Under the pieces are notes generated by a model. That model made no database searches and was not told where the DNA came from. It was given only the letters and a program-made list of their open reading frames with translations. From Candidatus Nanosyncoccus sp. (GTDB taxonomy: Bacteria > Patescibacteriota > Saccharimonadia > Saccharimonadales > Saccharimonadaceae), in NCBI GenBank assembly GCA_045615385.1, contig JAZLES010000008.1, positions 2,601-66,600 of the forward strand: a stretch of 64,000 nucleotides of DNA, in the 5' to 3' direction. Position numbers and translations under genes: made by a program. This document shows, one piece after another, positions 21,990 through 57,362 of this stretch. The first letter of the stretch is position 1. Every line of letters starts with the position of its first letter.

Positions 21990-22175
21990 AATAAGTCCCG
22001 CCTCCCTTATAAGGCGCCCATTAATTATAGCACGCATAAGCATTTCTGTCAAGAGTAAATACAGATTATTTTACATATAGTCAAAACTATGTTAATAATG
22101 CTTAAGCTCTTAATATTTTATTAGACTTTTTTTTTATAAAATGTTAATATTAAACTAGCTTAATATGGATTTAAA

Positions 22176-35463: not shown

Positions 35464-35519
35464 ATGACAATTATAACATTTTGTGATAAAATATACAGAA
35501 GTAATCTGGAATATATTTT

Positions 35520-37418
35520 ATGTTTTTTGTCGATTTTCTTGGCTGGATTATGAAATTGTGTTACCAAATGGTAAATGATTTTGGTTGGGCTATCGTTTTG
35601 TTTACTCTCGTCAGCAAAATCATCTTGTTGCCGATTTCAATCTGGGTACAAAAAAATTCTATTAAAATGGTCAAAATGCAACCTGAAATTAACCAATTAA
35701 AAGTCAAATATTTTGGTGACAAAGATGCAATTGCCGAAGAAGAATCAAAAATTTATAAGAAATATAAATATAACCCATTTGCTTCGCTCGTACCTTTAAT
35801 TATTCAAATTGTCCTACTTTTAGGCGTAGTTGAGATTGTTAAAAATCCAGAACTCTATATTGGCCTTGAAAATATTAATTATAATTTCTTTGGTTTTGAT
35901 CTTAGATGGATCGCAATTGAAAATGGTGGTATGGCAATTTGGATTCCAATTATCGCCGGCTTATCAGCTCTAGCATTATGTATTGGTCAAAACATTATGA
36001 ATGTACTCCAAGCTGAACAATCTAAATGGAATCAATGGGGGATGCTGATTCTTTCAGTTGGGCTTTCCTTATATCTTGGTACTTTCGTTACCGCTGGTGT
36101 GGCGCTTTACTGGACCGCCAGTAATTTAATGGCCATTATCCAGCAATGGCTCCTCAATATTTTCATTAATCCGAAAAAACACGTTGATTACAAAGCGCTT
36201 GAAAAATCGCGCGCCGAATTAAAGGAGTTACGAGATCTTAATAAAACGGTCAAAAGAACGAAAGAACAAATCAAAAAAGAAAAAGAAGACTATAAAAAGT
36301 TTTTCTCAGTTGCAAATAAAAAACTTGTATTTTACTCCGAAAGCAATGGTTTCTATAAATATTATAAAGGAATCATTGAATATATATTAGAAAATACAAA
36401 TTTAACAATTCATTATATTACAAGTGATTATCATGATAATATTTTCGAGCTCGCTAAAACTGAAAAACATATCAAACCGTATTACATTGAAGAAAAGAAA
36501 CTCATTACGTTAATGATGAAAATGGATGCAGATGTTGTTGTAATGACAATGCCAGACATCAATAATTATCATATTAAACGTAGTTATGTCCGAAAAGATA
36601 TTGAATACATTTATTTACCACATGGTATTGATAGCCCAAATCTTACGATGCGCAAAGGTTCAATGGACCATTATGATTCAGTTTTTGTGACTGGGAAATA
36701 TCAACGTGAAGAATGTGAAAAGACTAATCAAGTTTACAATATTAAAGAACGTAAAATTATCAATTTAGGTTATCCGCTTCTGGATGACATGATTTTTGAT
36801 TATAAAAAGTCCAAAAAGAAACCTAGCAAAACTAAAACTATCATGATTGCTCCATCTTGGCAAAAAGACAATATTATTGACTTGTGCTTAGATAATCTCC
36901 TCAAAGCTCTTAAAGGTGAAGATTACCAAGTTATTGTGCGCCCTCATCCTCAACAGGTTCGCCACATGAAAGATGCTTTTGAAAAAATGAAAGAAAAATA
37001 TGCAGGAACCAATATTATTATCCAAACTGATTTTTCATCCACTGATTCCGTCTTTAACTCCGATTTATTAATCACCGACTGGTCTAGTATTGGTTATGAA
37101 TACGCCTTTACCACTGAAAAACCAGTTATATCAATTGATACACCCATGAAGATAATGAACCCAGAATATAAGAAAATCAAAGTTGAACCAATCAATATTT
37201 GGGCTCGTGAAAAAATTGGCGAAGTGGTTAAAGTCAAAGACGTTAAGAATATTAATTCCGTTGTCAAGAAAATTCTAAAAGATCCTAAAAAATACCAAAA
37301 GAAAATTTCTACTCTTAAGAAAGATTCGATGTATAATTTAGGTAATAGCGCGGAGGTAGGCGCTGAATATATTATTAAATGTGTTCAAGAAAAAATTAAA
37401 GAAAGGAAAAAACAATGA
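35520..37418 (+). CDS. YidC/Oxa1 insertase domain fused to a CDP-glycerol glycerophosphotransferase (TagF-like) domain
   Basis: N-terminal about 215 aa: KMQPEINQLK...YKYNPF...ALYWTASN; C-terminal: YLPHG, LGYPLLD, IAPSW, RPHP, LITDWSSIGYEYAF. Confidence 0.8.
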   Translation: MFFVDFLGWIMKLCYQMVNDFGWAIVLFTLVSKIILLPISIWVQKNSIKMVKMQPEINQLKVKYFGDKDAIAEEESKIYKKYKYNPFASLVPLIIQIVLLLGVVEIVKNPELYIGLENINYNFFGFDLRWIAIENGGMAIWIPIIAGLSALALCIGQNIMNVLQAEQSKWNQWGMLILSVGLSLYLGTFVTAGVALYWTASNLMAIIQQWLLNIFINPKKHVDYKALEKSRAELKELRDLNKTVKRTKEQIKKEKEDYKKFFSVANKKLVFYSESNGFYKYYKGIIEYILENTNLTIHYITSDYHDNIFELAKTEKHIKPYYIEEKKLITLMMKMDADVVVMTMPDINNYHIKRSYVRKDIEYIYLPHGIDSPNLTMRKGSMDHYDSVFVTGKYQREECEKTNQVYNIKERKIINLGYPLLDDMIFDYKKSKKKPSKTKTIMIAPSWQKDNIIDLCLDNLLKALKGEDYQVIVRPHPQQVRHMKDAFEKMKEKYAGTNIIIQTDFSSTDSVFNSDLLITDWSSIGYEYAFTTEKPVISIDTPMKIMNPEYKKIKVEPINIWAREKIGEVVKVKDVKNINSVVKKILKDPKKYQKKISTLKKDSMYNLGNSAEVGAEYIIKCVQEKIKERKKQ

Positions 37419-37642
37419 ATGGAGCTATTATATTTGGCTATATCGACCCCTCGGTTATGACTTATGCCATCCAAGCTGGTGCCGGTATCGTTATTGCAAT
37501 CGGAGCCTTTGTCGGTTTATATTTCCGAAAAGCCAAGAAAAAAGTTAATAAAAAACTCGGCATCGACGAGAACAAAAATAAAGAAGTCGAATCGGACGAA
37601 ATTGAAGTCAAGAAAACCAAAAAGTCTGACAAAAGTAACTAG
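37415..37642 (+). CDS. Small single-TM protein (YIDP motif, charged tail)
   Basis: ATGA-coupled to the YidC fusion; GYIDPSVMTYAIQAGAGIVIAIG. Confidence 0.7.
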   Translation: MNGAIIFGYIDPSVMTYAIQAGAGIVIAIGAFVGLYFRKAKKKVNKKLGIDENKNKEVESDEIEVKKTKKSDKSN

Positions 37643-37668: not shown

Positions 37669-38727
37669 ATGTATTACTTAAATCCTAAACTTAAAGATTT
37701 AAACCGAATCTTCGACCAAAACGACAGAAGTAATTATTTGCGCCTAGACCTGAACGAAAATCCTGGAGGATTACCAAAAGATTTAATTGAAAAAGCCCTA
37801 AACGAAATTACACCAGAGTTGGTTGCTGAATATCCAGAAACTAGACATTTTCAAGAAATACTAGCCGATCATCTAGGCGCAAACCCCGAAAATATTTGCC
37901 TAGTTAACGGCTCCGCAGAAGGTATACGTTATATTATTGAAGCTTTCACTAGCGAAGGAGGGCGCATCGTCGGAGTTGTGCCATCCTATCTTATGTTCCA
38001 AATCTATTCAGAAATGTATGGTAGAAACTTTATCAAGGTCCCATACAATGATGACCTGACTATGAATATTGATCATATCATTTCTAAACTTACCGATGAT
38101 ACCCAACTCTTAATCCTATTAAACCCAAATAATCCCATGGGGAATACTTATAGCGAAGAAGAATTCCAAAAAATCCTCAGTGTCGCTAGGGCTAAACAAA
38201 TTACAGTTCTCGTTGATGAAGCTTATCATTATTTCTACCCAAAAACTTTTATTAAATATGCCCTAAACAACGAACATATTTTTATTACGCGAACTTTTTC
38301 TAAATTATTCTCTATGGCCGGATGTAGACTTGGCTATGTCGTCGGTTGGCCACAAGGTATCAAGATGGTGCAAAAACTATGTACGCCGCACAATACTAAC
38401 GTATTTGCTTTAAAAATTGCCGAAACAATCTTTAAGACACCAGGCGCTCTAGACAATTTAATCAATGATTTTAACGAAGGTAGAAGCTATTTTATTGAAT
38501 GGTTAAACAAACACCACTATCAACATCAAGGTAAAGCTGGTAACTTCATCTTTATAAAACCAAAAACCGATGCTAATACCGTCGTTGATCGTATGAAAAA
38601 AGAAAAGAAAATTCTTATCAAAAGCTACCCAAATGTAGGTAGTCTGGGCGACTGCCTGCGTGTATCTATCGGTAGTAAAAAATACATGAAAATCTTCACA
38701 AAAGCATTGTCAGAAATTGATAAATAG
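37669..38727 (+). CDS. PLP-dependent fold-type-I enzyme (HisC/CobD-like aminotransferase or decarboxylase)
   Basis: LDLNENP, NGSAEGI, NPNNPMG, DEAY, RTFSK(PLP)...GCRLG. Confidence 0.85.
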   Translation: MYYLNPKLKDLNRIFDQNDRSNYLRLDLNENPGGLPKDLIEKALNEITPELVAEYPETRHFQEILADHLGANPENICLVNGSAEGIRYIIEAFTSEGGRIVGVVPSYLMFQIYSEMYGRNFIKVPYNDDLTMNIDHIISKLTDDTQLLILLNPNNPMGNTYSEEEFQKILSVARAKQITVLVDEAYHYFYPKTFIKYALNNEHIFITRTFSKLFSMAGCRLGYVVGWPQGIKMVQKLCTPHNTNVFALKIAETIFKTPGALDNLINDFNEGRSYFIEWLNKHHYQHQGKAGNFIFIKPKTDANTVVDRMKKEKKILIKSYPNVGSLGDCLRVSIGSKKYMKIFTKALSEIDK

Positions 38728-38738
38728 GAGTTCGCTAT

Positions 38739-40067
38739 ATGAAAAAAGTTATAACCTACGGCTCGTTCGATTTATTCCATTACGGACACCAACGACTATT
38801 AGAACGCGCCAAAAAACTTGGCGATTATCTCATAGTCGGAGTTACTAGTGACGATTATGATCGTGTCCGCGGAAAAATCAACGTAGCCCAATCGTTAGGT
38901 GAACGCATAGCATCAGTAAAAGCCACCGGTCTTGCTGATATGATCATAATAGAAGAATACGACGGCCAAAAAATTGATGACATCAAAAAATATAACGTTG
39001 ATGTCTTTGCTATTGGCTCTGACTGGAAAGGCAAATTCGATTATTTAGGCAATTATTGTAAAGTAGTTTACCTTGACCGAACCAAAGGCATTTCGAGTTC
39101 AAAAATCCGTTCAGAAAAACGCGCTACTAAACTTGGTCTAGTAGGTGATTCTTGTGCATTTTTTGAAAAATTCCTAAAAGAAAGTAAATTTGTCAATGGT
39201 TTAGAAATCGTTAGTGTTTATCCAGAAAAACTCAAGTCTACAGATCAAGCAATACAAAAGCTCAATCTTAAAGTTTATGAATCTTATGACAACATGTTAA
39301 AAAATGTTGATGCTGTTTATATAAAAACTGATTATTCTAAACGTTTCGATTATATTAAAAACGCTCTCAAAAATGGCAAAAATGTACTTTGCGAATCGCC
39401 AATTTGTCTTGACGAAAACAAATGCCAAGAACTTTTTAAGCTCGCTAAGAAAAACAAATGTGTCTTAATGGAAGCCATACGTACAGCATATACGACCGCT
39501 TATAAACGCCTCGCTCTTTTGTCCGAAATAGGAAAAATCGGAAACGTATTATCAATTGAAGCCACTTGTACAAGTATGCGGAGAAATGACCCTGATCACT
39601 TCGCAAGCCTCTATGAATGGGGACCTAATGCTCTACTTCCTGTTTTCCAAATCCTTGGTACAAACTATCAGACCAAAACAATTATCACACATAAAAATCT
39701 AAAGTTAGCACAAGGTGATGCTTTCACCAAAATTAATTTTATCTATGAACATGCTACTGCCAGTATTACTGTAGCAGAAGGAGCTAAATCAGAAGGTGAC
39801 CTCGTTATATCTGGAGATAAAGCCTATATTTATGTCCCCGCTCCTTGGTGGAAAACTGAGTATTTTGAACTACGCTACGAAGACCCAGCTTATAATCGTC
39901 GATACTTTTACCAGTTAGACGGCGAAGGAATCCGTTATGAGCTAGTTGAATTCCTTCAATCTATGAAAGATGGTAAAGATGTTCCTCGCATAGATTACAA
40001 TACTACTCTTGCAATTTGCAAAGTTATGCAAGATTTTAAAGCACAAAAAGATTTAATCAAAATTTAG
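38739..40067 (+). CDS. TagD-like cytidylyltransferase fused to a Gfo/Idh/MocA oxidoreductase
   Basis: YGSFDLFHYGH...GSDW...RTKGISSS; then GLVG...KNVLCESP...MEAIRT. Confidence 0.85.
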   Translation: MKKVITYGSFDLFHYGHQRLLERAKKLGDYLIVGVTSDDYDRVRGKINVAQSLGERIASVKATGLADMIIIEEYDGQKIDDIKKYNVDVFAIGSDWKGKFDYLGNYCKVVYLDRTKGISSSKIRSEKRATKLGLVGDSCAFFEKFLKESKFVNGLEIVSVYPEKLKSTDQAIQKLNLKVYESYDNMLKNVDAVYIKTDYSKRFDYIKNALKNGKNVLCESPICLDENKCQELFKLAKKNKCVLMEAIRTAYTTAYKRLALLSEIGKIGNVLSIEATCTSMRRNDPDHFASLYEWGPNALLPVFQILGTNYQTKTIITHKNLKLAQGDAFTKINFIYEHATASITVAEGAKSEGDLVISGDKAYIYVPAPWWKTEYFELRYEDPAYNRRYFYQLDGEGIRYELVEFLQSMKDGKDVPRIDYNTTLAICKVMQDFKAQKDLIKI

Positions 40068-40106: not shown

Positions 40107-40919
40107 ATGAATATACCCCGTATATTAAATAAAAAAAATCGCGTTCTTCTAGCTGAGCTGACTAAGACCGATTTCAAACTCAGATACCAAGGCTCGGTCC
40201 TCGGTTACCTATGGGCTTTACTACGCCCACTCATGATGTTTGCTATTTTGTATATTGTTTTTGCAAAACTTTTAAAATTCGGTGGAGATATTCCTCATTA
40301 CCCAGTATACCTCTTAGCCGGAACTACTATGTGGAGCTTCTTTACAGAATGTACTTCTCAAGGCATCCAAGCAATGGTTGTCCGTGGTGATCTTATTCGA
40401 AAAATCAGCTTTCCTAAATATATTGTTGTAGTTTCTGCTACTCTAACCGCCGTCATTAATATGCTCATTAATTTAGTCGTCGTTATTATTTTTGCTTTAA
40501 TTAACGGCGTGACAATTAGCTGGACCTGGTTACTCGTTCCGCTTTCCCTCGCTGAACTATATATTCTAGCCCTTGGTATCTCTTTCCTACTTGGAGCCAT
40601 TAATGTAAAGTATCGCGACGTCACTTCTATTTGGGACGTTTGTATTCAAGCTCTTTTCTATGCCGTTCCAATCATTTATCCAATTTCTATGGTTGTAGAA
40701 AGTAGCACCCTCGCCGCCAAAGTTATCCTCTTAAATCCAATTGCCCAAGCCATTCAAGATATTCGTCATAACCTTATCACGCCCGAAACTATTACTACTT
40801 GGAATTTTATCAATAACCACTTCTTCCAATTCTTACCAATTATTTTCATTATTGTCATTTTAATTTTTGCCGTTCTCTTTTTCCGTAAAAAATCTAAATA
40901 CTTTGCGGAGGAAATTTAA
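40107..40919 (+). CDS. wzm: ABC-2 polysaccharide exporter permease (Wzm/RgpC/TagG-like)
   Basis: FKLRYQGSVLGYLWALLRP, KYRD, FYAVPIIYP. Confidence 0.92.
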   Translation: MNIPRILNKKNRVLLAELTKTDFKLRYQGSVLGYLWALLRPLMMFAILYIVFAKLLKFGGDIPHYPVYLLAGTTMWSFFTECTSQGIQAMVVRGDLIRKISFPKYIVVVSATLTAVINMLINLVVVIIFALINGVTISWTWLLVPLSLAELYILALGISFLLGAINVKYRDVTSIWDVCIQALFYAVPIIYPISMVVESSTLAAKVILLNPIAQAIQDIRHNLITPETITTWNFINNHFFQFLPIIFIIVILIFAVLFFRKKSKYFAEEI

Positions 40920-42172
40920 TGAAAAAAAATCTTGGCACACGTACTGAAATAAATAATCCAAACGATAATACCGCTATAAAAGTAGAAAACCTTTCTAAGA
41001 GTTTTAAACTACCCATTAATCGCTCAAATAATCTAAAAAGCTCAATTTTTAATTTAATACGTGGCAATAAAGGTTATAAAAAACAGCAAGTTCTTAAAAA
41101 TATCGATTTAGAAATCAAACGTGGCGAATTTCTTGGTATTGTTGGTCGCAATGGTTCCGGAAAATCTACCCTTCTAAAAATTCTTGCCGGTATCTATTAT
41201 CCAGAAAAAGGCAAAATCACAATTAACGGTAATCTTATTCCCTTCATTGAGCTAGGCGTCGGCTTCAACCCAGATTTAACCGGTCGAGAAAACGTTTACT
41301 TAAATGGTGCATTGCTTGGCTTTTCTAATCACGAAATCGACAACATGTATGATGAAATTGTTAAGTTTGCTGAACTAGAAGAATTTATGGACCAAAAACT
41401 TAAAAACTTTTCCTCTGGCATGCAAGTCCGTCTCGCTTTTTCAATTGCTATTAAGGCCCAAGGAGATATCCTAGTACTCGACGAAGTTCTTGCCGTCGGT
41501 GACGAAGCTTTCCAAAACAAATGCAACCAATTCTTTAATAAAATAAAAAAAGATAAAACTAAAACTGTCGTTCTTGTCACGCATTCAATGGAAAACGTCC
41601 GTAAGTATTGTGATCATGCAATTCTCATACGTGATGGCATTATTACAATAGATGGTAGCCCAGAAGATGTGGCAAATAATTATAGTCTTGAAAACACCGA
41701 ACGTTATTCCAGTAATTTTAACAGACTCAATCAAAAAGAATCCGTTATTGAAAACCTCAAAGTCACTCTCGAATCGCCAGACATCATCAGCCAAAAGGAT
41801 AAAATTAAAATTAATATTGCATATGACACCAACGAAGATATCGCTACTCACGTTGCAATAACTTTATGGGATATCATTCGTAGCCAATCATTAATAAATA
41901 GTAATTCGAAAAAATACCCAACTATTGGTAAGAAACACCACACTATTTCTTTTGAAGCAAATCTCGACGAATTAAACGACACCAATATCCGAGCTTACGT
42001 TTCGATTCGCAATCAAGACGGTGATATTTTAGCCTATAGCCAAGAAAACGAATCACCCACTTTTATCTTCCGACGTTCAGATTACCCAGATTCTAAGAAT
42101 AAAACTACAAATGCTATATTATTTAATCGTGGAGAGTACGAAAACCATGAGAAAAAATCCAGTCAACAATAA
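40919..42172 (+). CDS. wzt: ABC polysaccharide exporter ATPase with a C-terminal Wzt-C-like domain
   Basis: GRNGSGKS, FSSGMQVRLAF, LDEVLAVGD. Confidence 0.92.
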   Translation: MKKNLGTRTEINNPNDNTAIKVENLSKSFKLPINRSNNLKSSIFNLIRGNKGYKKQQVLKNIDLEIKRGEFLGIVGRNGSGKSTLLKILAGIYYPEKGKITINGNLIPFIELGVGFNPDLTGRENVYLNGALLGFSNHEIDNMYDEIVKFAELEEFMDQKLKNFSSGMQVRLAFSIAIKAQGDILVLDEVLAVGDEAFQNKCNQFFNKIKKDKTKTVVLVTHSMENVRKYCDHAILIRDGIITIDGSPEDVANNYSLENTERYSSNFNRLNQKESVIENLKVTLESPDIISQKDKIKINIAYDTNEDIATHVAITLWDIIRSQSLINSNSKKYPTIGKKHHTISFEANLDELNDTNIRAYVSIRNQDGDILAYSQENESPTFIFRRSDYPDSKNKTTNAILFNRGEYENHEKKSSQQ

Positions 42173-43361
42173 TATTGCAGTTGTCTGTGATGATTTAACC
42201 GAATTTTTCGTCATCAAAAGTATTATTGATAGACTAAATAAATTAGATATTCCAGTTGACATCATCGTTCCTTCAGACAGTGGATATAATAATTTAGCTA
42301 ATCATACTATTACAAAAATCAAAGAATTAGGTTATTCTCCTTTAGATAATGCTCCTAAAGACAAATTATATAAAATACTCCTCACGCCATATCCGGGTTT
42401 AGATGTAGTAAAACGACTAAAATATATTTATCACATACGTTATCCCTATGGAGCCGTCTCTACCAAACCTAACCCCACTTATTTACCCAGTACTAGAATA
42501 GATTATGATGCTATCATATCTTTTAATACTTTTGATCAGACTTTTCTTAATGCCTACGGAGCTACAGTCTACCCTGTACCATATTGGCGTTATCATAATT
42601 TTAAAAAAGATGCCAAGACTCATTCAAAACCGGTCCTCCTTATCCTTCCTACTTTTGGAGCAGATACCAGCTGCGCCAATAAGTTTACTGATTCAGCTAT
42701 CGATGAAATCAAAAAACATTTTTTTGTCATAGTTAAAGCTCACCATGCTATTCATTTCGGTTATGACGGAGATCAAACCATCAATAATCTCAAAAAAATA
42801 GCAGACGAGTATTATGATTCAGACATCCCGATTGATCAATTATTAAAAAAAGCCGATCTAGTCCTGTCCGACAATTCAGGAGCAATTTTCGAAGCAATTT
42901 GTGCCGACACTCCTGTTGCTTTATTCGCCGACAATCTCAATGCCAGAAAATTCCACACAATCGACACTCCTCAATATATTTATGCTCATCAAGGCATCTT
43001 ACCCCACACCAACCAAGCTGAACAGGTTCTACCAATGCTTCTATCGATTCAACCTTTTTATAAAAAACAGCAAACTCTTAAAAAACAATTGTTTTTACAG
43101 ATATCAAACAATCCATATAAAAATTTTATTAAAATTATCAAATACTATCTAACCTTAGACGAAACCAAAGATTTTCATAAAGTCTTACATGATGCCATGG
43201 TTAAAGAATGGTATCATGATAAACAAACAATTTTAGATCAAAAAACTAAAATTGAAGAACTAACTGCCACTATCAATAATCTCTATAATTCAAATAGTTG
43301 GAAGATTACAAAACCCTTAAGGACTATCAAAATACGGAGTAAAAATCATGTTAAAAAATAA
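42147..43361 (+). CDS. CDP-glycerol glycerophosphotransferase-like (GT-B) protein with a coiled-coil tail
   Basis: LILPTF, VKAHH, ADLVLSDNSGAIFEA; ends NSNSWKITKPLR. Confidence 0.7.
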   Translation: MRKNPVNNNIAVVCDDLTEFFVIKSIIDRLNKLDIPVDIIVPSDSGYNNLANHTITKIKELGYSPLDNAPKDKLYKILLTPYPGLDVVKRLKYIYHIRYPYGAVSTKPNPTYLPSTRIDYDAIISFNTFDQTFLNAYGATVYPVPYWRYHNFKKDAKTHSKPVLLILPTFGADTSCANKFTDSAIDEIKKHFFVIVKAHHAIHFGYDGDQTINNLKKIADEYYDSDIPIDQLLKKADLVLSDNSGAIFEAICADTPVALFADNLNARKFHTIDTPQYIYAHQGILPHTNQAEQVLPMLLSIQPFYKKQQTLKKQLFLQISNNPYKNFIKIIKYYLTLDETKDFHKVLHDAMVKEWYHDKQTILDQKTKIEELTATINNLYNSNSWKITKPLRTIKIRSKNHVKK

Positions 43362-44637
43362 ACGTATTCTTATTACACAACCAATTATTCGGGGTTTTAA
43401 TGGCTCTACTCTCTTAACACTAGAGCTAGCCGACGCTCTTCAAAAAATCGGAGCCAAAGTTACTCTATATACCTGCAACTATACAAAACCAGCTTCCACT
43501 TTTTTTCAAAAAGCCAATCTCCACGTCGATACACTTCAAGATAATCCAGATTACAAATTATCAGATTTTGACTATATCTGGATTCATTCACAAATCTTAC
43601 CGACTAGCATTATTAAGGATTTATCCTATAAACATTCTAAAATACCTTCATTTATCTTTTTGCATATGTCTGGTATGGATTGGATCCCCGATGAAAAACC
43701 TTGGATTTATAATTTAGAAAATCAACTCTCTGGCTTATCACTCTTTATTTCTGAAGAAGTATTAGAAGTTAATAAACCATTTCTTGATTCTTCAATCCCT
43801 ACTGCATTCTTCCGTAATCCAGCTCCAAAAGAATATCTCCAAATCGGATCAACCCCTTCTCCGAACCTACAAAAACTTCTCATCGTTTCCAATCATCCAC
43901 CCAAAGAAGTTTTAGAAGCCAAAAAAATACTTATCGAAAAATACCATCTCAACGTTTCTATTCTTGGCGAAAGCCAAGACAAATATACCCTCATGAGCCC
44001 ATCAATCCTCAACCAATATGATGCCGTACTCACAATTGCTAAAACCGTCCCTTATTGTTTACTCGCTAACAAACCGGTATATATATATGATGCCTTTGGT
44101 GGCGGTCCAGGTTGGCTTAATAAAAATAATTATAACCAAGCCAAATATCGTAATTTTTCTGGCTATCAAAACCACCTTTTCCCTAATTATGAAGGCAAAT
44201 GTTTTTCCTTTAAAAAACCTGAACAAATTTCACAAGAAATTATCAATGGTTATAAAGACGCTTTGCTTTTTCAAACATCACAACACGAAGAATTTATCCA
44301 AGATTTTTCTCTAGAACAAGTTATTCCTAACATTTTTCAATCCGTCCAACAAAGAAATATTACACCCTTTCCTAAATCATATACCGAATCTGTTATCGCT
44401 TCTCAATTGTTTGCATTTAATCGTTTTGAAGCAGTTAGCCTCTTATATGAACGCGATGCAAATATTAACCATTTACTCAAAGAGGTCAACAAACTCCGCA
44501 TATCCAATACAACTCTTTCTCATTATAAAAAATCTGCCGAAGCCGTCTTCTCATCTCGAGCATATCGTTTATTTAACCAATTTATTAAACCATATCAAAA
44601 AATAAAGTATCGGCAAGATAGAGGTAAAAAACCATGA
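43348..44637 (+). CDS. Putative GT-B glycosyltransferase
   Basis: GFNGSTLLTLELA N-terminus, LLIVSNH, YDAFGGGPGW; coiled-coil tail. Confidence 0.6.
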   Translation: MLKNKRILITQPIIRGFNGSTLLTLELADALQKIGAKVTLYTCNYTKPASTFFQKANLHVDTLQDNPDYKLSDFDYIWIHSQILPTSIIKDLSYKHSKIPSFIFLHMSGMDWIPDEKPWIYNLENQLSGLSLFISEEVLEVNKPFLDSSIPTAFFRNPAPKEYLQIGSTPSPNLQKLLIVSNHPPKEVLEAKKILIEKYHLNVSILGESQDKYTLMSPSILNQYDAVLTIAKTVPYCLLANKPVYIYDAFGGGPGWLNKNNYNQAKYRNFSGYQNHLFPNYEGKCFSFKKPEQISQEIINGYKDALLFQTSQHEEFIQDFSLEQVIPNIFQSVQQRNITPFPKSYTESVIASQLFAFNRFEAVSLLYERDANINHLLKEVNKLRISNTTLSHYKKSAEAVFSSRAYRLFNQFIKPYQKIKYRQDRGKKP

Positions 44638-45083
44638 CAAAAGAATCTAATAACAAAAAACCAATTATCGGCTACACTGCCGGCGTTTATGATATGTTTC
44701 ATATTGGGCATCTTAATGTCATTCGCAACGCAAAAGCCCAATGTGATTATTTAATCGTAGCAGTTAGCACTGATGAATTAGTAAAAAAAGAAAAAAACAA
44801 AACCCCAGTCATCCCATTTGAAGAGCGCAAAGAAATTGTCGCCGCCATAAAGTATGTAGATGAAGTTGTGCCCCAAACCGACAAAAACAAATTAGGTGCT
44901 TGGCAAAAATATAAATTCGATAAAATGTTCGTCGGTTCAGATTGGCAAAATACCCCTCAATGGAAAAAATACGAAGAAGAACTAAACCCTCATGGTGTAG
45001 AAATTGTCTACCTTCCACATACTGATGGTATATCTAGCACCGAATTAGCATCATTAATCAAAAAGCTTTTACCTCATGAATAA
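44634..45083 (+). CDS. tagD: Glycerol-3-phosphate cytidylyltransferase-like
   Basis: GVYDMFHIGHLN, GSDW, HTDGISST. Confidence 0.85.
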   Translation: MTKESNNKKPIIGYTAGVYDMFHIGHLNVIRNAKAQCDYLIVAVSTDELVKKEKNKTPVIPFEERKEIVAAIKYVDEVVPQTDKNKLGAWQKYKFDKMFVGSDWQNTPQWKKYEEELNPHGVEIVYLPHTDGISSTELASLIKKLLPHE

Positions 45084-49518: not shown

Positions 49519-51507
49519 TTATAACACTTCTTCTAAATCTTTTCTAACAATACACAGATTATAATCACTACTTGTATCTTCTTCTGTTCTAATACACCAA
49601 TTTCCATTATCATCTTCTACCTTTGTAACAAAATTTAGAATTGTTCCTTTTTTTACATAATCACCTTTTTCTAAAGTTTGAGGATTTACATAATATGTAT
49701 CTCTTATAATTCGCATTTTACGTGGCGCTGATGCTGGTATATAGGCCTCCACCTCTTTTAAATCAGCACGCTCTATACACTTATTATTATCACTTTTCGT
49801 ATCGCTCTCCGTTCTAATACACCAATTTCCGTTTGAATTAACGACTTTAGTATCAAAACTTAAAATTTTATTTTTTCGCACTAATTCGCCCTTTTCCCTA
49901 GTATACGGTATCGTATAATACACATCCCTCACAACCTGCATTTTACGCGGTGAAAGCACAGGTAAGTATTTATCGGCTTCATCCAAACTACTACGTTCTA
50001 TACATACATTATTGTTATTATCCGTATCACTCTTTGTTCTGATACACCAATTCCCGTCGGCATCTTTAATTTTAGTCACAAATAATAGCACTGTATCTTT
50101 CTTTACTTGCCCACCTTTTTCCATAATCTGTGGAATAATATAATTTGTATCTTCTGTTACTCTCATGTATCTCGACGTTACCACTTTTTCATATATTATT
50201 TCATCAATACTCTTTGCTGAAATACCTATTTCTGAACCATTATTTGCATCATATTCAGTAATATAATAAACATCATCATTAAACGTCGCCTTCTTCAAAA
50301 ACCTTTTAATCAATTTTTTATCGTAAGAAGTAATCTTTTCACCAGTTCTAATGTTAATCTTTATAGCTCCAGGTTTTATCACCTTTTCCTGCTCCGATTC
50401 CGAAATACTTTCAAAAGTTATTTTTACTTCATCCAAATCCTCCCTCTTAATACAACGATTCCTATTATTATTTGTGTCCTCTGCGGTTCTTATACACCAT
50501 TTATCCTCTTTATCAACTATTTTCGTAGAAAATTTTAAAATTGTTCCTTTCTTAACAGAAACATCATTCATGCCAGAATTTGGATTAATATAATAAGTAT
50601 CCTTAATGACTATCATATATCGTGGCGTCACAACATCGCTATAAGATGCATCATCAATAATCCCCCCAAACCAATCTTCAAAATACAAATAAAAATTCCT
50701 ATTTCCATATGCCCCACAATATGCAGTACCATATCCAGCCGCAAGCGCTCCATCATTCGGTTGGTATGGCGTATATCTATATAAAGCCGAAGTTGCCAAA
50801 CTCTTTATATTTACCACCGACCCCCCACATCCTGCATTCGGATTATATTGAATATAATTATTCCCTAACGGATAATTTGTCCAACCACCATCTAATACTG
50901 TTCTGAACAAAGCCGCTGCTTTTCTTACTTGGTTCTTAAACCCGTAATATTCTGCATTACATGGCGCCGTATCCGGACAACCATATCCCGTTGCCGAACG
51001 GAACTGACGATCATTCGGCCAAGAATCTGTAATCAGGCTCTGCTCTTTTTGTAACAAAACTATTAAAACTTGTGGGTTAATTTTATAATCCTGCGCCGCA
51101 CGATAAATAATATGTGCCGCTGAATTCCCATCAGGAGCATCATCGCCATAACTTGTCCCTTCTCCGAAAGTCTCCTCCGCGAGACAAACAAAATGCCCAT
51201 CTTTTATATGATATGAATAACTCGTATATTGATCCGCTAAATAAGTTCTCGTATCCCGACAGTTTCCTTTTGCCAACAAAAATGCCTGTATCTCTGCTTC
51301 ATCCATGGATTTATAATTCCCCATCTGATAATCCGAAATAATATATCCAGGATCAAAACTAGCCAAACTTGCTGCTTCTACCCCCTCATTATCTTTGAAC
51401 TTTTGTGTCATAAAACTGAATAAAAACATCGCCACAAAAATACCACCTAAAAGATACCAAATTCTCTTATCTGTTCGACGCGCTTGTTTTTGTCTAACGG
51501 CCATCAT
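49519..51507 (-). CDS. Membrane-anchored surface protein: putative lysozyme-like domain plus five SH3/GW-like repeats
   Basis: N-terminal TM; FDPGYIISD...INPQVLIVLLQKEQSL...GYGCPDTAPC; repeats PRxM...WCIRT...C. Confidence 0.7.
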   Translation of the reverse strand: MMAVRQKQARRTDKRIWYLLGGIFVAMFLFSFMTQKFKDNEGVEAASLASFDPGYIISDYQMGNYKSMDEAEIQAFLLAKGNCRDTRTYLADQYTSYSYHIKDGHFVCLAEETFGEGTSYGDDAPDGNSAAHIIYRAAQDYKINPQVLIVLLQKEQSLITDSWPNDRQFRSATGYGCPDTAPCNAEYYGFKNQVRKAAALFRTVLDGGWTNYPLGNNYIQYNPNAGCGGSVVNIKSLATSALYRYTPYQPNDGALAAGYGTAYCGAYGNRNFYLYFEDWFGGIIDDASYSDVVTPRYMIVIKDTYYINPNSGMNDVSVKKGTILKFSTKIVDKEDKWCIRTAEDTNNNRNRCIKREDLDEVKITFESISESEQEKVIKPGAIKINIRTGEKITSYDKKLIKRFLKKATFNDDVYYITEYDANNGSEIGISAKSIDEIIYEKVVTSRYMRVTEDTNYIIPQIMEKGGQVKKDTVLLFVTKIKDADGNWCIRTKSDTDNNNNVCIERSSLDEADKYLPVLSPRKMQVVRDVYYTIPYTREKGELVRKNKILSFDTKVVNSNGNWCIRTESDTKSDNNKCIERADLKEVEAYIPASAPRKMRIIRDTYYVNPQTLEKGDYVKKGTILNFVTKVEDDNGNWCIRTEEDTSSDYNLCIVRKDLEEVL
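49522..50643 (-). repeat. Five intragenic repeats of about 75 aa (four with a WCIRT-x-C cysteine pair)
   Basis: PRYMIV, (degenerate), SRYMRV, PRKMQV, PRKMRI units each ending in L-x-E-V/A/I. Confidence 0.85.
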
Positions 51508-52121: not shown

Positions 52122-53786
52122 ATGAAAAAAGGTGTATCACATTTTAAAATGCTTCTACCAGCTATGGTGTTATCATTAGCTATCAGTTTTATGTTCCTAA
52201 TTTTTGAGCCCATTTCTCTCTATGCAAACAACATCAATGATTTCTGGTTTGATTTATATGATATGCTTCCTTTACTTATATCAGCATTTATCTTATTCTT
52301 TTTAATATTTTTTGTAGTTCTATCAATCTGTTATTATATTTCTGTAAAACTGTTCAAAAAAAATAATATCTATCATGTCTTGCTATCCATTATTTTTTGT
52401 ATTTTCTTAATAACTTATATCCAAGGCAATTTCCTTGCCGGTTCACTACCAGGCGTCAACGGTGAAGTCTTTAATTGGCGCGACTACAAAACAGAATCAA
52501 TCATATCAATCATTTTATGGTTGGCCATCTTTATAGCTGCTTTCTTTATTATTAAAAAAATCAAATTCTCAAAATTTGTTTCATATATTGCGCCAATCAC
52601 AGGAACAATTCTTGTCATGCTTTTAGTTTCTCTTACCTCATCGCTTCTTACTACCAATGCCTTAGAAGATAAATTTACCGCAAAAGCCACCTTTGATTAC
52701 TATAATCAGGTATCTAACAATCGCAATTTCTTCATCTTCCTAGTTGACGCAATCGATTCTAGATCATTTGACAATCTCCTTAAAGATAATCCCGAATACC
52801 AAGACACCCTTAAAGATTTTACTTATTATCAAGACACCGTATCTTACTATCCCTACACAAGGGATTCAATACCTTACATTTTTTCCCAAATCCCCAATCA
52901 CAATGAAACTGATTTTAGTGACTATTCAAAAATGGCCTTTAGAGATTCCAAAATCCTTAATACTTTAAATGATGATCATTATAATTTATTTTTTTACGAT
53001 AATGACATTATCATAGACCGTGATACTGCTTCTAAACTCAAAAATATCTCTAACAAAACCAAAATTAATCGTGAAAACTTCTTTTTTGAAATCATGCGCT
53101 ATGACCTTTATAAATATCTTCCTTATCCTCTCAAAGGTAAAGCCCATATTGAAAACCTCAGTTTTTGGATTTCCGAACTAGAAGAAGGCAGAGCTGATTT
53201 TGATTGGCGCGATAGAACAAATTATGACATATACAAAAATGAGTCTCTCGAAATTGTAGACGAAAAAGTCTTTCATTTTATCCATCTCGAAGGAGCTCAT
53301 ATTTGGTTTAACCTTGACGAAGACCTCAATCCTATAGATAGAACTGTTGGCACCTATTCTCAAAAACAAATTGCCACCTTTAAAGTCATCCAGGCCTATC
53401 TTGATCGTCTTAAATCATCCGATGCTTATGATAACGCCTCCATAGTAATTATGTCCGACCACGGTTATAAAGACGGGGTATGGGAATATGATTACATTAA
53501 TAATCGCTTTAACCCTATACTATACATTAAAGGCCTAGAAGAAACCCATTCTAAAATGCATCGATCTGATAAACCAATCTCCTTTGAAGATTTAGGAGAT
53601 GCTTTCCAAGAACTATACGAAGGCAAGCCTAGTACAGAATTATTTAGCGATATTTCTTTACCTAGAGACCGCACAATAATATATTATGTCTGGAACAAAG
53701 AAGATCATATGGTAGAAGAAATTCAGACCGGTAAAGCCTGGGACGAAACTACCATCATAGAAACCGGTAATGTCTTTGACCGATAA
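52122..53786 (+). CDS. Polytopic alkaline-phosphatase/sulfatase-fold protein (LtaS/EptA-like phosphotransferase)
   Basis: Five TMs; LVDAIDS, YPYTRDS (catalytic Thr), HLEGAH, MSDHG. Confidence 0.75.
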   Translation: MKKGVSHFKMLLPAMVLSLAISFMFLIFEPISLYANNINDFWFDLYDMLPLLISAFILFFLIFFVVLSICYYISVKLFKKNNIYHVLLSIIFCIFLITYIQGNFLAGSLPGVNGEVFNWRDYKTESIISIILWLAIFIAAFFIIKKIKFSKFVSYIAPITGTILVMLLVSLTSSLLTTNALEDKFTAKATFDYYNQVSNNRNFFIFLVDAIDSRSFDNLLKDNPEYQDTLKDFTYYQDTVSYYPYTRDSIPYIFSQIPNHNETDFSDYSKMAFRDSKILNTLNDDHYNLFFYDNDIIIDRDTASKLKNISNKTKINRENFFFEIMRYDLYKYLPYPLKGKAHIENLSFWISELEEGRADFDWRDRTNYDIYKNESLEIVDEKVFHFIHLEGAHIWFNLDEDLNPIDRTVGTYSQKQIATFKVIQAYLDRLKSSDAYDNASIVIMSDHGYKDGVWEYDYINNRFNPILYIKGLEETHSKMHRSDKPISFEDLGDAFQELYEGKPSTELFSDISLPRDRTIIYYVWNKEDHMVEEIQTGKAWDETTIIETGNVFDR

Positions 53787-54142: not shown

Positions 54143-55789
54143 ATGGAAAAAAATAAATCAATTGATGGGCTTGTATCTCGTCACTCAAAAAAGACGGTTT
54201 CTCAAACTACACCTAAAAAGCCCACCCCAAAATCTTCTAAATCTAAAACTCCTCGTCCTAAAAAAACTACCCCTAAAGCCTCTCTCGAATCCCTTACTAA
54301 TGAACTTAATCCTTCTCCCACTCCAGAAACTCCATCAATACAAAAAACTCCTAACGTTACTGAAGATTTTCTCCAACCTGTCCAAGCCTTTGACTTTGAT
54401 GAAGAAACCGGTGAGCTTAAAGCAGCTCAAACACCTGTAGAAGAATCACCAAAACTCAAAAAGGAGAAAAAGAAGATTTCTAAAAAACGTAAGATTATCA
54501 CTAGTATCATTTTATTCATCGTCCTATTACTAATTGGCGCAGTTATCTGGCTCATCCTCTGGGGCAACGACATTATTGCTAAAATCACCGGTGGACAAGG
54601 CAACGTTCTTAGTCTACTTAATCTCACCAGCGAAACCTATGAACCCCTAAAAACTGACGAAAATGGACGCACTAATATCCTCGCCTTCGGTACTAGTGGC
54701 TATAACATGGATGGCGAAGAAGGTAATGGAGTTCACGATGGCGCCCAACTAACCGACTCTATTATGGTCATTAGCCTCAATCAAGAAACTGGCGATGTCG
54801 CCATGTTATCTCTTCCACGCGACTTAAAAGTCTCTTCTACTTGTACGGCAACCGGTAAAATTAACGAAATCTATTGGTGTAATAACATGGATAACAATGA
54901 TGAACAAGCCGGCGCCGAGGCACTTATGAACGAAGTTGGTACCATCCTCGGTCTTGATTTTCAATATTACGCCCACCTTAACTGGGGCTCACTCGTCCAA
55001 ATCGTTAATACTTTAGATGGAATCAATGTTACTCTAGATGAAGATATCGCCGACTATTATTATACCGGCGCCGTTTTTAACGCCGGAGTCGAATATACTA
55101 TCGACGGCGAACAAGCTCTCGGCCTTGCTCGCGCGAGACACGGTACCACGAGCGGAGATTTTACCCGTGGCGCCAGCCAACAAAAAATCCTCATCGGAAT
55201 TAAAGATAAGATTTTTGAAAAAAATCTTTCCCTTTCTGATATCATGAGTCTCGCATCTACACTAGGCGATAATCTTCGTACCAATTTCTCTCTCGAAGAA
55301 ATGAAAACTCTGGCCCACTTAACCTTTGATTTTGACTTTGACACCATCCGCCAAGTTTCTCTCATCGAGCCAAATCGTCTCATGACTACTGGCGATATTA
55401 ATGGTATTTCTTATGTCTTACCTTCTGGTGGCGCTAATTATTATCTCAAAATTCAAGATTATGTTGCCACAATGTTTTCTAACGATCCTCGTTCCTATGA
55501 AGACTCAACTATCTTAGTCTTAAATGGCGGTGACTTAGCAGGTGTTGCTTCTACCGAAAAAGAACGTCTTGAGGAGGCTGGCTATACCAGTATTTATGTT
55601 GACGATGCTCCAGAAGGTGAATATTCTGAAGGTTATACTCTTTACGCCCTCACCAATTCTGCTCCTGGCACCCAAAAACTCCTTGAAGAAAAATATGAAC
55701 AAACTGCTAAAACCCTCGAAGAATTACCCGAAGGTATCACCACAGACTATGATTTCGTCATTATTATTAACAAAACAGACTATAATTAG
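54143..55789 (+). CDS. LCP (LytR-CpsA-Psr) family glycopolymer-peptidoglycan ligase with a LytR_C domain
   Basis: TM; RTNILAFG, LTDSIMV, SLPRDL, KINE, LARAR, DFTRGASQQ; VLNGG LytR_C. Confidence 0.9.
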   Translation: MEKNKSIDGLVSRHSKKTVSQTTPKKPTPKSSKSKTPRPKKTTPKASLESLTNELNPSPTPETPSIQKTPNVTEDFLQPVQAFDFDEETGELKAAQTPVEESPKLKKEKKKISKKRKIITSIILFIVLLLIGAVIWLILWGNDIIAKITGGQGNVLSLLNLTSETYEPLKTDENGRTNILAFGTSGYNMDGEEGNGVHDGAQLTDSIMVISLNQETGDVAMLSLPRDLKVSSTCTATGKINEIYWCNNMDNNDEQAGAEALMNEVGTILGLDFQYYAHLNWGSLVQIVNTLDGINVTLDEDIADYYYTGAVFNAGVEYTIDGEQALGLARARHGTTSGDFTRGASQQKILIGIKDKIFEKNLSLSDIMSLASTLGDNLRTNFSLEEMKTLAHLTFDFDFDTIRQVSLIEPNRLMTTGDINGISYVLPSGGANYYLKIQDYVATMFSNDPRSYEDSTILVLNGGDLAGVASTEKERLEEAGYTSIYVDDAPEGEYSEGYTLYALTNSAPGTQKLLEEKYEQTAKTLEELPEGITTDYDFVIIINKTDYN

Positions 55790-56256
55790 TTTTCTTCTAT
55801 CTTGCTTATAATTAGTTTTCGCTCACGCCCTTCCCCTTCCGAGTGTGTTTCAATATCCGAATAATCCCCCGCTAACTTATGTACCACCCTTCGGTCCGCC
55901 GCATTTAGATTAATCTCCATCGGCTTTCCCGTTTCTCTAACTTTTTTAATCCATCCTTCTGCTTTTTCTGTAATCCTATCCGCTCTCTGTCTCTTGTAAT
56001 TTGCCACATCAACATTCACCCTAACAATCTCCGCTTCCTTTGAAACTAAAGCCATCGATACAATATGTTGAAGCGCCCTCAAATTATCCGCATTTCGCCC
56101 AATTAAAAGCGAGTTTAATGACGTTGAAGGTACCGATAATTGAATCACCTCATCGTCAATCGTTGAAGAAACTGCTACATTGATGCCAAAAAAGCTCAGC
56201 AAATCCTCCAAATATCGTGCTGCGAACCTTATGGATTCATCTTTATTCATATTCAT
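55786..56256 (-). CDS. jag: Jag/EloR(KhpB)-like KH-R3H RNA-binding protein
   Basis: LLIGRNADNLRALQ (KH), DRRVVH...SEGEGRER (R3H). Confidence 0.85.
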   Translation of the reverse strand: MNMNKDESIRFAARYLEDLLSFFGINVAVSSTIDDEVIQLSVPSTSLNSLLIGRNADNLRALQHIVSMALVSKEAEIVRVNVDVANYKRQRADRITEKAEGWIKKVRETGKPMEINLNAADRRVVHKLAGDYSDIETHSEGEGRERKLIISKIEEN

Positions 56257-57362
56257 CTCCTTTTCTTTTTATTATCTTTCGCGGAGATTCTTGTGATTTT
56301 TGTTCCTGTCTTTTTATTTTCTACCACCTGGGCTTCTTGTATATTTCTAAGTTCTTTTAAGACGGCCTTATCCGTCATGTCGTCAATCTCATTATCAACT
56401 CTTTTCAGCACCATCCTCTGTTGAATAATGGTTATCACGTTACTTAAGAAATAATAAAAGGCTAACGCCCCATTTAAATTGAACATAATAATGAACATCA
56501 TAATTGGCATCATCGCCGACATCTGTCCCGTTGCAAAACTATTCACATCTGAAGTTTCCAAATCCTTACCATTCTTAGCGTCATCAAGTAAATCACGGAA
56601 TTTCTTTTTCTTCTCTGATTTTCCTGAAGGCATCTGTTGTTTTACTGCCCAATATTGAATTACCGAAGCCATCACCGCACAAATCAAAATAAATAATGCA
56701 CTAAAACTAAAGTTTCCCATTAAAACATCGCTAGCTTTTACGTCTAATCTAATCTTTCCAAATAGTTGTGGATGAAAATCATATTCCACTTTTTCCTCAG
56801 CTAGAATTTCGTCATTCTTTAAATCATCTAAATAGATTTCTTGCTTTTCTTCCAGCACACCTATTTCTGATCCCTCATACGCCACAATATCATATGCCCG
56901 ATTCATTAAGTTATCTATCGGCATCGGCGTCGCAATCACCCTAATCGCCGAAAAAATGGCGATAAAAATTGGTAATTGAATACATAAAGTTAAAATCGAA
57001 GCAAACGGTTTGACATTATATCTCTTATAAAGATCCATCGTCTGTAACGATTCTAGCTGTTTATTACCCTTACAATTTTTCTTAATTTGCGTCAGCTCTG
57101 GCTGTAGTTTTCTCATCAATTTAGTCTGATCGAACTGCTTTTTTGTTAGCGGCCACATTAAAAGCTTCACTAAAATTGTAAAGATAATAATAGCTAAACC
57201 AAAGTCGTGTACTAGATTAAAAATTACAAACAAAATGTTTACGATTGGGCGCACTAAAATCATATCAATAAAATTAAAAGGACCACCCGTCATAATTGAG
57301 CCCACTATAAAAGCAATAAAGAGCCCCCAATAAATCTTCTTCTTCACACTCTTTTTATCCAT
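56253..57362 (-). CDS. yidC: Membrane protein insertase YidC (housekeeping)
   Basis: KLLMWPL, KLQPEL, IQLPIF, LAFYYFLSN; canonical rnpA-yidC-jag context. Confidence 0.92.
   Translation of the reverse strand: MDKKSVKKKIYWGLFIAFIVGSIMTGGPFNFIDMILVRPIVNILFVIFNLVHDFGLAIIIFTILVKLLMWPLTKKQFDQTKLMRKLQPELTQIKKNCKGNKQLESLQTMDLYKRYNVKPFASILTLCIQLPIFIAIFSAIRVIATPMPIDNLMNRAYDIVAYEGSEIGVLEEKQEIYLDDLKNDEILAEEKVEYDFHPQLFGKIRLDVKASDVLMGNFSFSALFILICAVMASVIQYWAVKQQMPSGKSEKKKKFRDLLDDAKNGKDLETSDVNSFATGQMSAMMPIMMFIIMFNLNGALAFYYFLSNVITIIQQRMVLKRVDNEIDDMTDKAVLKELRNIQEAQVVENKKTGTKITRISAKDNKKKRR

Follow-up and report, generated by a model that had tools for sequence, protein, structure and literature searches.

A YidC-TagF fusion gene linked to a microprotein and a sulfatase-fold enzyme in Saccharibacteria and gut Bacillota

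A YidC-TagF fusion and its overlapping microprotein gene

The stretch of DNA analyzed here, 64,000 nucleotides of contig JAZLES010000008.1 from Candidatus Nanosyncoccus sp. of the Saccharibacteria (the window), contains a gene that joins a YidC/Oxa1 insertase core to a TagF-like phosphotransferase domain in one open reading frame (ORF), followed by an overlapping gene for a microprotein (Table 1). An initial annotation, made from the sequence alone, had described a YidC core running in frame into a TagF-like domain of the GT-B fold, and this reading was borne out by Pfam, an AlphaFold2 model, and Foldseek. Residues 21 to 213 match Pfam 60KD_IMP (PF02096; E value of 5.5e-32, 111.4 bits against a cutoff of 35), and residues 264 to 600 match Glyphos_transf (PF04464; E value of 4.1e-17, 62.6 bits against a cutoff of 22.1) over positions 11 to 346 of the 367 in the profile. 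The protein also matches the NCBIfam model yidC_oxa1_cterm (TIGR03592) with 105.9 bits against a cutoff of 84.3. All NCBIfam YidC equivalog models scored far under their cutoffs, e.g., 73 against 365.

The AlphaFold2 model, based on an alignment of 55 homologues, has a mean predicted local distance difference test (pLDDT) score of 89.1. Its N-terminal half was modeled as a YidC of the Gram-positive type, with helices at residues 21 to 35, 37 to 63/68 to 81, 90 to 108, 137 to 160, 169 to 189, and 192 to 215; the C1 hairpin lies at residues 37 to 81, and transmembrane (TM) helices TM2 to TM5 follow it. With Foldseek, this half was matched to the YidC structures 3wo6, 3wo7, and 6al2 at target TM-scores of 0.72 to 0.75 and a root mean square deviation of about 3.5 Å (0.72 and 3.4 Å for 3wo7). 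The best PDB match of the C-terminal half was TagF (3l7j; E value of 2.8e-12), followed by 8qoy and 8a0c, which belong to the class of TagF-like capsule polymerases, and by TarL (8va1). As judged from sequence and predicted fold, the gene is a genuine YidC-TagF fusion whose N-terminal half belongs to the YidC family, with insertase activity that is putative.

Conservation was examined in 25 diverse members of the fusion family, down to 28% identity. The positive charge of the YidC groove at position 33 is lysine in 21 members and arginine in the other four, W198 and N202 are identical in all 25, and Y84, P92, Q96, and Y197 are kept. Residue by residue, the groove positions of the fusion correspond to those of Escherichia coli YidC (K33 to R366, Q96 to Q429, Y197/W198 to Y516/Y517, S201 to S520, and N202 to N521), and we take R366 to be equivalent to R72 of Bacillus halodurans YidC as the groove charge. 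The five-TM core, C1 hairpin, groove charge, and YW..SN motif are thus common to the fusion and to the Gram-positive-type YidC/Oxa1 proteins (SpoIIIJ/YidC1 and YqjG/YidC2; B. halodurans YidC2, 3WO6/3WO7; E. coli YidC, 3WVF/6AL2). The fusion differs from them in having no lipoprotein signal, and the ribosome-binding C-terminal tail is replaced by a cytoplasmic enzyme of 370 residues.

In the TagF half, K353-R354, H368, A444-P-S-W447, R474-P-H476-P477, D520-W-S522, and E527 are invariant in the same 25 members. Three of its C-lobe motifs align to TarL (APSW with APTF, RPHP with KMH433P, and TDWS..E with SDYS..E); among these motifs, which presumably bind cytidine diphosphate (CDP), we take H433 of TarL to be the second active-site histidine. 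The TarL alignment stops short of H368; the spacing between this residue and the aligned C-lobe downstream of it is as expected. This residue would be the counterpart of the catalytic base of the N-lobe, which we take to be H444 in TagF and H300 in TarL. The TarL match was lost when the profile of the domain was built from close relatives only, and with a more diverse profile the C-lobe alone was matched. The fusion shares with TagF, TagB, TarL, TarK, and the TagF-like capsule polymerases (3L7J, 8VA1, 8QOY, and 8A0C) the GT-B fold, the Glyphos_transf domain, and the nucleotide-binding motifs of the C-lobe, and its locus is likewise of a teichoic-acid-like kind, having genes for TagD-like proteins and for TagGH. 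It is, however, only about 15 to 17% identical to the solved members, has an integral YidC core in place of their amphipathic membrane-association region, and, unlike the classical wall teichoic acid polymerases, is coupled to an extracytoplasmic phosphotransferase. Averaged over pairs of the 25 members, identity amounts to 0.39 in the YidC core, 0.42 in the TagF domain, 0.33 in the linker, and 0.41 in the C1 hairpin, and by this measure both halves of the fusion are under purifying selection.

The complete genome (755 kb, completeness of 100%) encodes exactly two YidC-family proteins. The other one, a housekeeping YidC already pointed out in the initial annotation, lies beside jag and dnaA, and the YidC domain of the fusion is 28% identical to it. 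The fusion gene stands outside the rnpA-yidC-jag context, in a glycopolymer operon, in line with the view that it is a specialized second copy. Full-text literature searches for YidC together with glycerophosphotransferase, TagF, or teichoic acid turned up no description of a YidC-TagF fusion, and the initial annotation had likewise known of no characterized fusion of YidC with a glycotransferase.

The fusion gene and the microprotein gene overlap by an ATGA sequence, in which the TGA stop codon of the fusion (37416 to 37418) shares two nucleotides with the ATG of the microprotein (37415 to 37417); an AAGGA Shine-Dalgarno sequence lies 7 nucleotides upstream of the latter. The translational coupling, the single TM helix, the YIDP motif, and the Lys/Glu-rich tail described at the outset all stand. 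The protein has a short N-terminal tail, a TM helix with YIDPSVMTYAIQ, the motif YIDPSV, an RKAKKK anchor, and the conserved tail KKLGIDENKNKEVESDEI. It has no Pfam match, nor do its homologues, and every one of the 1,709 homologues is annotated as hypothetical. Two blocks are invariant, namely, YIDPSV.TYAIQA..GI.IA.GA and KKLG.DENKNKEVE.DEI. About two-thirds of the family have a typical Sec leader with AxA directly before YIDPSV; the remainder, which include all those from Saccharibacteria, are leaderless and have only 3 to 10 residues before the motif. The mature protein is predicted to be oriented N-out/C-in, which would place the basic anchor and the invariant acidic tail in the cytoplasm and bring the polar YIDPSV..TY..Q face to the outer leaflet.

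The only near-conserved serine of the tail was considered as a modification site and rejected, being lost in microprotein-sulfatase fusions (see below). The proposal that the fused enzyme decorates the microprotein is therefore unlikely, the TagF domain being cytoplasmic and the tail serine not being kept in those fusions. The tail reads more naturally as a docking motif.

Table 1. Features in the window discussed in the text
Feature	Position	Strand	Description
Promoter-like site	35464..35492	+	ATGACA-17 nt-TAAAAT with TG extension; 10/12 consensus matches, consensus match only
YidC-TagF fusion gene	35520..37418	+	632 aa (amino acids), uninterrupted ORF
YidC/Oxa1 core (fusion aa 21-216)	35580..36167	+	TM1, C1 coiled-coil hairpin, TM2-TM5
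Linker (fusion aa 217-263)	36168..36308	+	Lys/Glu-rich, helical, cytoplasmic; model helices 224-241 and 248-263
TagF-like GT-B phosphotransferase domain (fusion aa 264-632)	36309..37415	+	Cytoplasmic; Pfam, Foldseek
Microprotein gene	37415..37642	+	75 aa; ATGA overlap with fusion
HisC/CobD-type pyridoxal phosphate (PLP) enzyme	37669..38727	+	27-nt gap after microprotein gene, same operon
TagD-type cytidylyltransferase fused to Gfo/Idh/MocA oxidoreductase	38739..40067	+	Same operon
TagG/TagH-type ABC-2 exporter	permease 40107-40919, ATPase 40919-42172	+	ABC2_membrane 7.9e-17, ABC_tran 1.4e-23
Two overlapping ORFs	42111-43361, 43348-44637	+	416 aa and 429 aa; no Pfam match
Second TagD-like cytidylyltransferase	44634..45083	+	149 aa; g3p_cytidyltrns 1.6e-27, below equivalog cutoff
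Sulfatase-fold partner	52122..53786	+	554 aa; five TM helices and extracytoplasmic alkaline-phosphatase-superfamily domain
LytR-CpsA-Psr (LCP) ligase	54143..55789	+	Glycopolymer-to-peptidoglycan attachment, from context; LytR_cpsA_psr 5.1e-29
Housekeeping yidC	56253..57362	-	369 aa; PF02096 2.8e-39; adjoins jag, dnaA, dnaN, recF

The sulfatase-fold partner and the three-gene module

A third component of the system, which the initial annotation had missed as such while suggesting a link to sulfatase-fold genes in general, is the membrane-bound sulfatase-fold protein of Table 1. Its gene is the only one in the genome with a match to Pfam Sulfatase (PF00884; E value of 2.3e-6, 27.6 bits against a cutoff of 25). 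The protein has no NCBIfam match, and a search against the sequences of PDB gave no match even at an E value of 1, its class coming from the fold search alone. The structural model has a pLDDT score of 93.6 and long N-terminal helices, and Foldseek matched it to PbgA/YejM (6xlp), full-length MCR-1 (9nww), and EptC (6a82) at 12 to 15% identity. D209, H388, H393, D446, and H447 do not vary in any of the 58 sequences compared, of which 51 have threonine and 7 have serine at position 246; from the T-x-x-S-x-P context of EptA and MCR-1, we take T246 to be the nucleophile. By these residues the partner is predicted to be catalytically complete.

The partner shares with EptA/MCR-1/EptC, LtaS, GacH, and PbgA/YejM the five-TM bundle with an outward domain, the threonine of T-x-x-S-x-P, the Asp/His ligands, and the DHG motif. 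EptA, MCR-1, LtaS, and GacH take their head group from ordinary phospholipids. The known sulfatase-fold phosphotransferases use bulk phospholipid donors and have no known dedicated cytoplasmic partner, points in which the protein from the window would differ.

We surveyed 80 species-level loci that carry the fusion. The microprotein gene lies directly downstream of it in 65, elsewhere in the locus in 7, and is missing in 6, with 2 loci not assessable (present in 72 of 78). Of the 73 loci that could be assessed for a sulfatase-fold homologue, 65 have one, which is at most 1 kb from the fusion in 52 and up to 10 kb away in the other 13. In 61 related genomes, the fusion, the microprotein, and the sulfatase gene have an identical profile, occurring in the same three, and in the two carriers other than that of the window the genes abut in the order sulfatase-fusion-microprotein. 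The fusion is accessory and patchy where YidC/Oxa1 insertases are universal, and obligatorily linked to two other proteins. The small genes overlapping the end of the fusion in a Clostridia locus and in a distant Saccharibacteria locus encode proteins 65 to 83% identical to the microprotein of the window. Some loci have tandem sulfatase paralogues beside a single pair of fusion and microprotein genes, with three copies in L022 and L028 and two in L008, L017, L026, L030, L045, L076, and L079; this is expected if one generator of a donor serves several transferases.

Natural gene fusions tie the three proteins together as well. Long relatives of the fusion (1,185 to 1,545 residues) have a Pfam Sulfatase domain before or after the YidC-TagF core. 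Single chains of the order Sulfatase-YidC-TagF occur in L046 and L060 and as P0242, P0244, P0250, and P0259. In chains of the order YidC-TagF-Sulfatase, the microprotein sequence, still preceded by AxA, is embedded between the TagF and sulfatase modules. In other species, the microprotein is fused to the N terminus of the sulfatase protein, or the sulfatase module is fused straight to YidC-TagF. All these orders fit a single topology, in which YidC and the microprotein are N-out/C-in and the five-TM sulfatase module is N-in/C-out. Along its whole length, the sulfatase partner of the window shares 33% identity with the fused module of P0241 (E value of 1e-94); its identity with the product of the sulfatase-fold gene that abuts the fusion in Clostridia locus L001 is 40% (E value of 2e-138). 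By its linkage, the fusion stands at the center of a conserved module made up of three genes, its own and those of the microprotein and the sulfatase-fold enzyme, and the role of this module would be envelope decoration. The microprotein had been proposed at the outset as the obvious substrate, carrier, or partner of the fusion; the loci, the natural fusions, and the shared phyletic profile support its being a conserved partner. The loci and the natural fusions also turn the suggested link to sulfatase-fold genes into a strong one.

The single-chain YidC-TagF-microprotein-sulfatase proteins (L084 3972-7952, which is P0241, and P0262, P0280, and P0281) keep a leader-like hydrophobic segment and AxA before YIDPSV. 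This sequence feature hints that signal peptidase may cleave them internally. A gene for signal peptidase I is present in the Clostridia locus L001 (6038 to 6502).

In the window, the sulfatase gene lies 14.7 kb from the fusion. Its product has no more than 43% identity to the partners that abut the fusion in two congeners (G007:C2:131905-133518 and G027:C16:32416-34047), although the fusion and the microprotein of the same two congeners are 81 to 85% and 84 to 87% identical, respectively, to those of the window. Such sequence divergence suggests replacement or relocation of the partner within the genus.

More than 100 full-length homologues of the fusion with the same two Pfam domains were found in independent assemblies at 63 to 99% identity, labeled by NCBI just as "membrane protein insertase YidC." An exhaustive search of representatives at 50% identity gave about 50 full-length fusion clusters, and a scan of one genome per species placed relatives of the fusion in at least 579 species. 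The carriers are mostly gut and rumen Bacillota (Lachnospiraceae, Oscillospiraceae, Ruminococcaceae, Erysipelotrichaceae, and Bacilli), together with Saccharibacteria of gut and rumen; cultured carriers include Lachnospira eligens, Waltera hominis, and the Lachnospiraceae strains COE1 and G41. Among the relatives of the window's organism, the distribution is patchy, with the fusion present in 3 of the 37 species of the genus and in none of 24 further families of the order. The fusions from Saccharibacteria form one clade (support of 100/100) deep within Bacillota in a maximum-likelihood tree. Because this clade nests inside Bacillota, the tree indicates that the Saccharibacteria acquired the module horizontally from that phylum. 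Neither the spread through Bacillota nor this acquisition had been recognized in the initial annotation.

The surrounding glycopolymer locus

The promoter-like site of Table 1 is the best plus-strand match near the start of the fusion gene and lies in the intergenic region between the divergent galE and fusion genes. The fusion probably opens a long plus-strand operon that runs from 35520 to about 46110. Terminator-like sites downstream of the fusion are no commoner than in shuffled sequences, which is consistent with a single long operon.

The two genes that follow the microprotein gene, for the PLP enzyme and for the cytidylyltransferase-oxidoreductase, are the probable head-group supply. 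They make up a candidate route to a CDP-activated amino-alcohol head group, which would be similar to serinol-phosphate or aminopropanol-phosphate. As donor for the TagF-like domain, the neighboring genes point to a CDP-activated head group of the amino-alcohol or glycerol type. The same fusion of TagD-type and oxidoreductase domains adjoins the module in L004, L008, L016, L043, L061, and L071. Nucleotidyltransferase or PLP enzyme genes flank the module in 39 of the 53 loci of at least 15 kb, and the head-group genes of other lineages encode LicC-like nucleotidyltransferases fused to CobD/HisC-like PLP enzymes, AEP-transaminase-like enzymes, and LicD. From the sequences of these flanking genes, the common denominator appears to be a small CDP-activated head group, often amino bearing.

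Next in the operon is the exporter of the TagG/TagH type, which, from its context, is presumed to export the wall polymer that serves as the acceptor. Of the two overlapping ORFs after it, the first is weakly TagF-like around SDNSG..E (hhalign probability of 42%), has homologues in L003 and L005, and may encode the conventional primase or polymerase of the locus; the second was tested as a further TagF-like enzyme, and no TagF-like similarity was found. The operon also has an acyltransferase in addition to the second TagD-like protein. On the other strand or further on are genes for Glf, two GT2 glycosyltransferases, the sulfatase-fold partner, and the LCP ligase. Together these genes mark the region as a wall-glycopolymer locus, whose polymer probably contains galactofuranose.

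The minus strand carries a further gene at 49519 to 51507 for a protein of 662 residues, with an N-terminal TM helix and five repeats of about 65 residues with the pattern ...GNWCIRTE.DT...N.CI.R.DL.EV. This protein has no Pfam match; it may belong to the glycopolymer locus as a protein that binds the wall through its repeats. Two other large minus-strand ORFs of the window have no Pfam match either, namely, 18552 to 22052 (1,166 residues) and 61829 to 63994 (721 residues, with an N-terminal TM helix).

Possible mechanisms of the module

The module points to a machine for decorating cell-wall sugar polymers. As its most likely mechanism, which we put forward tentatively, we infer a relay of a head group across the membrane. 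On the cytoplasmic face, the TagF-like domain would move a phospho-head group onto a membrane lipid from a CDP-activated donor, which would be made by the neighboring PLP enzyme and cytidylyltransferases. The hydrophilic groove of the fused YidC core, with the charge of K33, would carry the charged head group of the lipid across to the outer leaflet. There, the sulfatase-fold enzyme would take the phospho-head group via Thr246 and put it on the exported galactofuranose-containing wall polymer. The microprotein would be an adaptor, with its TM helix and outer YIDPSV packing with the membrane modules and its acidic tail docking on the cytoplasmic enzyme. Two precedents are known: in proteoliposomes, purified E. 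coli YidC acts as a phospholipid scramblase (bioRxiv 10.1101/2023.09.01.555937), and GacH, a sulfatase-fold enzyme, puts glycerol phosphate on streptococcal wall polysaccharide outside the cell (bioRxiv 10.1101/337519).

A more specific version, in which the insertase fold itself has been co-opted as the membrane-crossing element, is possible but doubtful. The TagF domain would then make a private donor lipid, the YidC groove and the polar outer half of the YIDPSV helix would hand the head group over, and the sulfatase-fold enzyme would unload it onto the polymer and regenerate the lipid.

Such a relay has parallels in known three-component decoration systems. In GtrB/GtrA/GtrV, CsbB/GtcA/YfhO, and ArnC/ArnEF/ArnT, a carrier is loaded in the cytoplasm and passed across the membrane, and an outward transferase acts on the exported polymer; in the Dlt pathway, the tiny conserved membrane protein DltX is an obligatory component. 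The module would share this logic and has none of the protein families in common with these systems. It differs in that a phosphodiester head group, rather than a sugar or D-alanine, would be transferred and in that the presumed conduit is an insertase fold.

Several points weigh against the head-group relay. We know of no TagF-family enzyme that loads a simple membrane lipid for such a purpose. The C1 hairpin is well conserved (0.41), yet as a feature of insertases it has no evident part to play in scrambling. The genome encodes CdsA and two CDP-alcohol phosphatidyltransferases; the system could therefore draw on ordinary phospholipids and need not have a private donor lipid. Since the TagGH exporter is present in the locus, the TagF domain could instead work on polymer that has yet to be exported. 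The sulfatase gene of the window also lies 14.7 kb from the fusion, and its product has only 43% identity to the abutting partners of two congeners. The idea that the host, a member of the candidate phyla radiation, has no ordinary donor phospholipids and hence needs a private donor was considered and rejected, given CdsA and the two phosphatidyltransferases.

YidC is one of the two universal machines of membrane-protein insertion, and its lipid scrambling has so far had no physiological context; the fusion offers a natural system for asking if an Oxa1-family groove moves a lipid head group. If the insertase fold does serve as the membrane-crossing element, the fusion would be the first member of the YidC/Oxa1 family to have a lipid head group, and not a polypeptide, as its physiological substrate, and the module would be a new route for phosphodiester decoration of Gram-positive-type envelopes. 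Given its presence in at least 579 species, abundant gut Lachnospiraceae among them, the module probably shapes the surface chemistry of much of the gut and rumen microbiota, which may include zwitterionic or amino-alcohol phosphate decorations relevant to recognition by phages, the immune system, and symbionts. Saccharibacteria, which are host attached and have genomes of about 750 kb, keep the module of about 4 kb, and this suggests that it matters for the surface of the episymbiont.

The fusion could instead be a private insertase or chaperone, in which the YidC core inserts and assembles the microprotein and the multi-TM sulfatase partner and the TagF domain separately primes or elongates a lipid-linked polymer in the cytoplasm. 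We consider this unlikely, even though the fusion retains every hallmark of an insertase (C1 hairpin and groove charge among them), the microprotein is translationally coupled to the fusion, and its topology is that of the classical YidC-only substrates (leaderless as in Pf3 coat, or with a leader and AxA as in M13 procoat). A housekeeping YidC is kept in every genome examined, and there is no obvious need to fuse a catalytic insertase one to one with an enzyme and a client. In the Sulfatase-YidC-TagF chains, moreover, the TM bundle of the sulfatase is translated ahead of the YidC domain to which it is joined, and the tight link of a cytoplasmic CDP-dependent enzyme with an extracytoplasmic phosphotransferase is left unexplained.

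About equally improbable is a passive anchor or scaffold, a YidC core with no transport function that tethers a TagF-like primase or polymerase near the exporter and nucleates a complex with the other proteins. In its favor, TagF-family enzymes have to be associated with the membrane, the solved TagF and TarL use amphipathic N-terminal regions that are replaced in the fusion, and TagGH is present in the locus. An anchor would, however, let the polar groove drift, whereas K/R33, Q96, W198, and N202 show little or no variation among members that share only 28 to 50% identity. The constraint on the YidC half also equals that on the enzyme half, a point against simple anchoring.

The microprotein might also be a covalent carrier similar to DltX, receiving the head group on the outer Tyr1, Ser5, Thr8, or Tyr9 of mature YIDPSVMTY before it passes to the polymer, for which the Dlt pathway is a precedent. 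YIDPSV.TY is nearly invariant at the outer membrane boundary, and the AxA site right before the tyrosine is kept even inside a chain of 1,326 residues, which suggests that an exposed N-terminal tyrosine may matter. A free N-terminal tyrosine is not universal, however, as the leaderless versions, including that of the window, have 3 to 10 extra residues, and the sulfatase-fold enzyme already owns a covalent threonine nucleophile; this role is quite improbable.

An assembly or frameshift artefact, which the initial annotation had named as one way in which its reading could fail, or a decaying pseudogene can practically be dismissed: the gene has no internal stops, both halves show purifying selection, the single-chain model is confident, and the same architecture is shared by hundreds of independent assemblies, those of the cultured isolates L. 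eligens and W. hominis among them.

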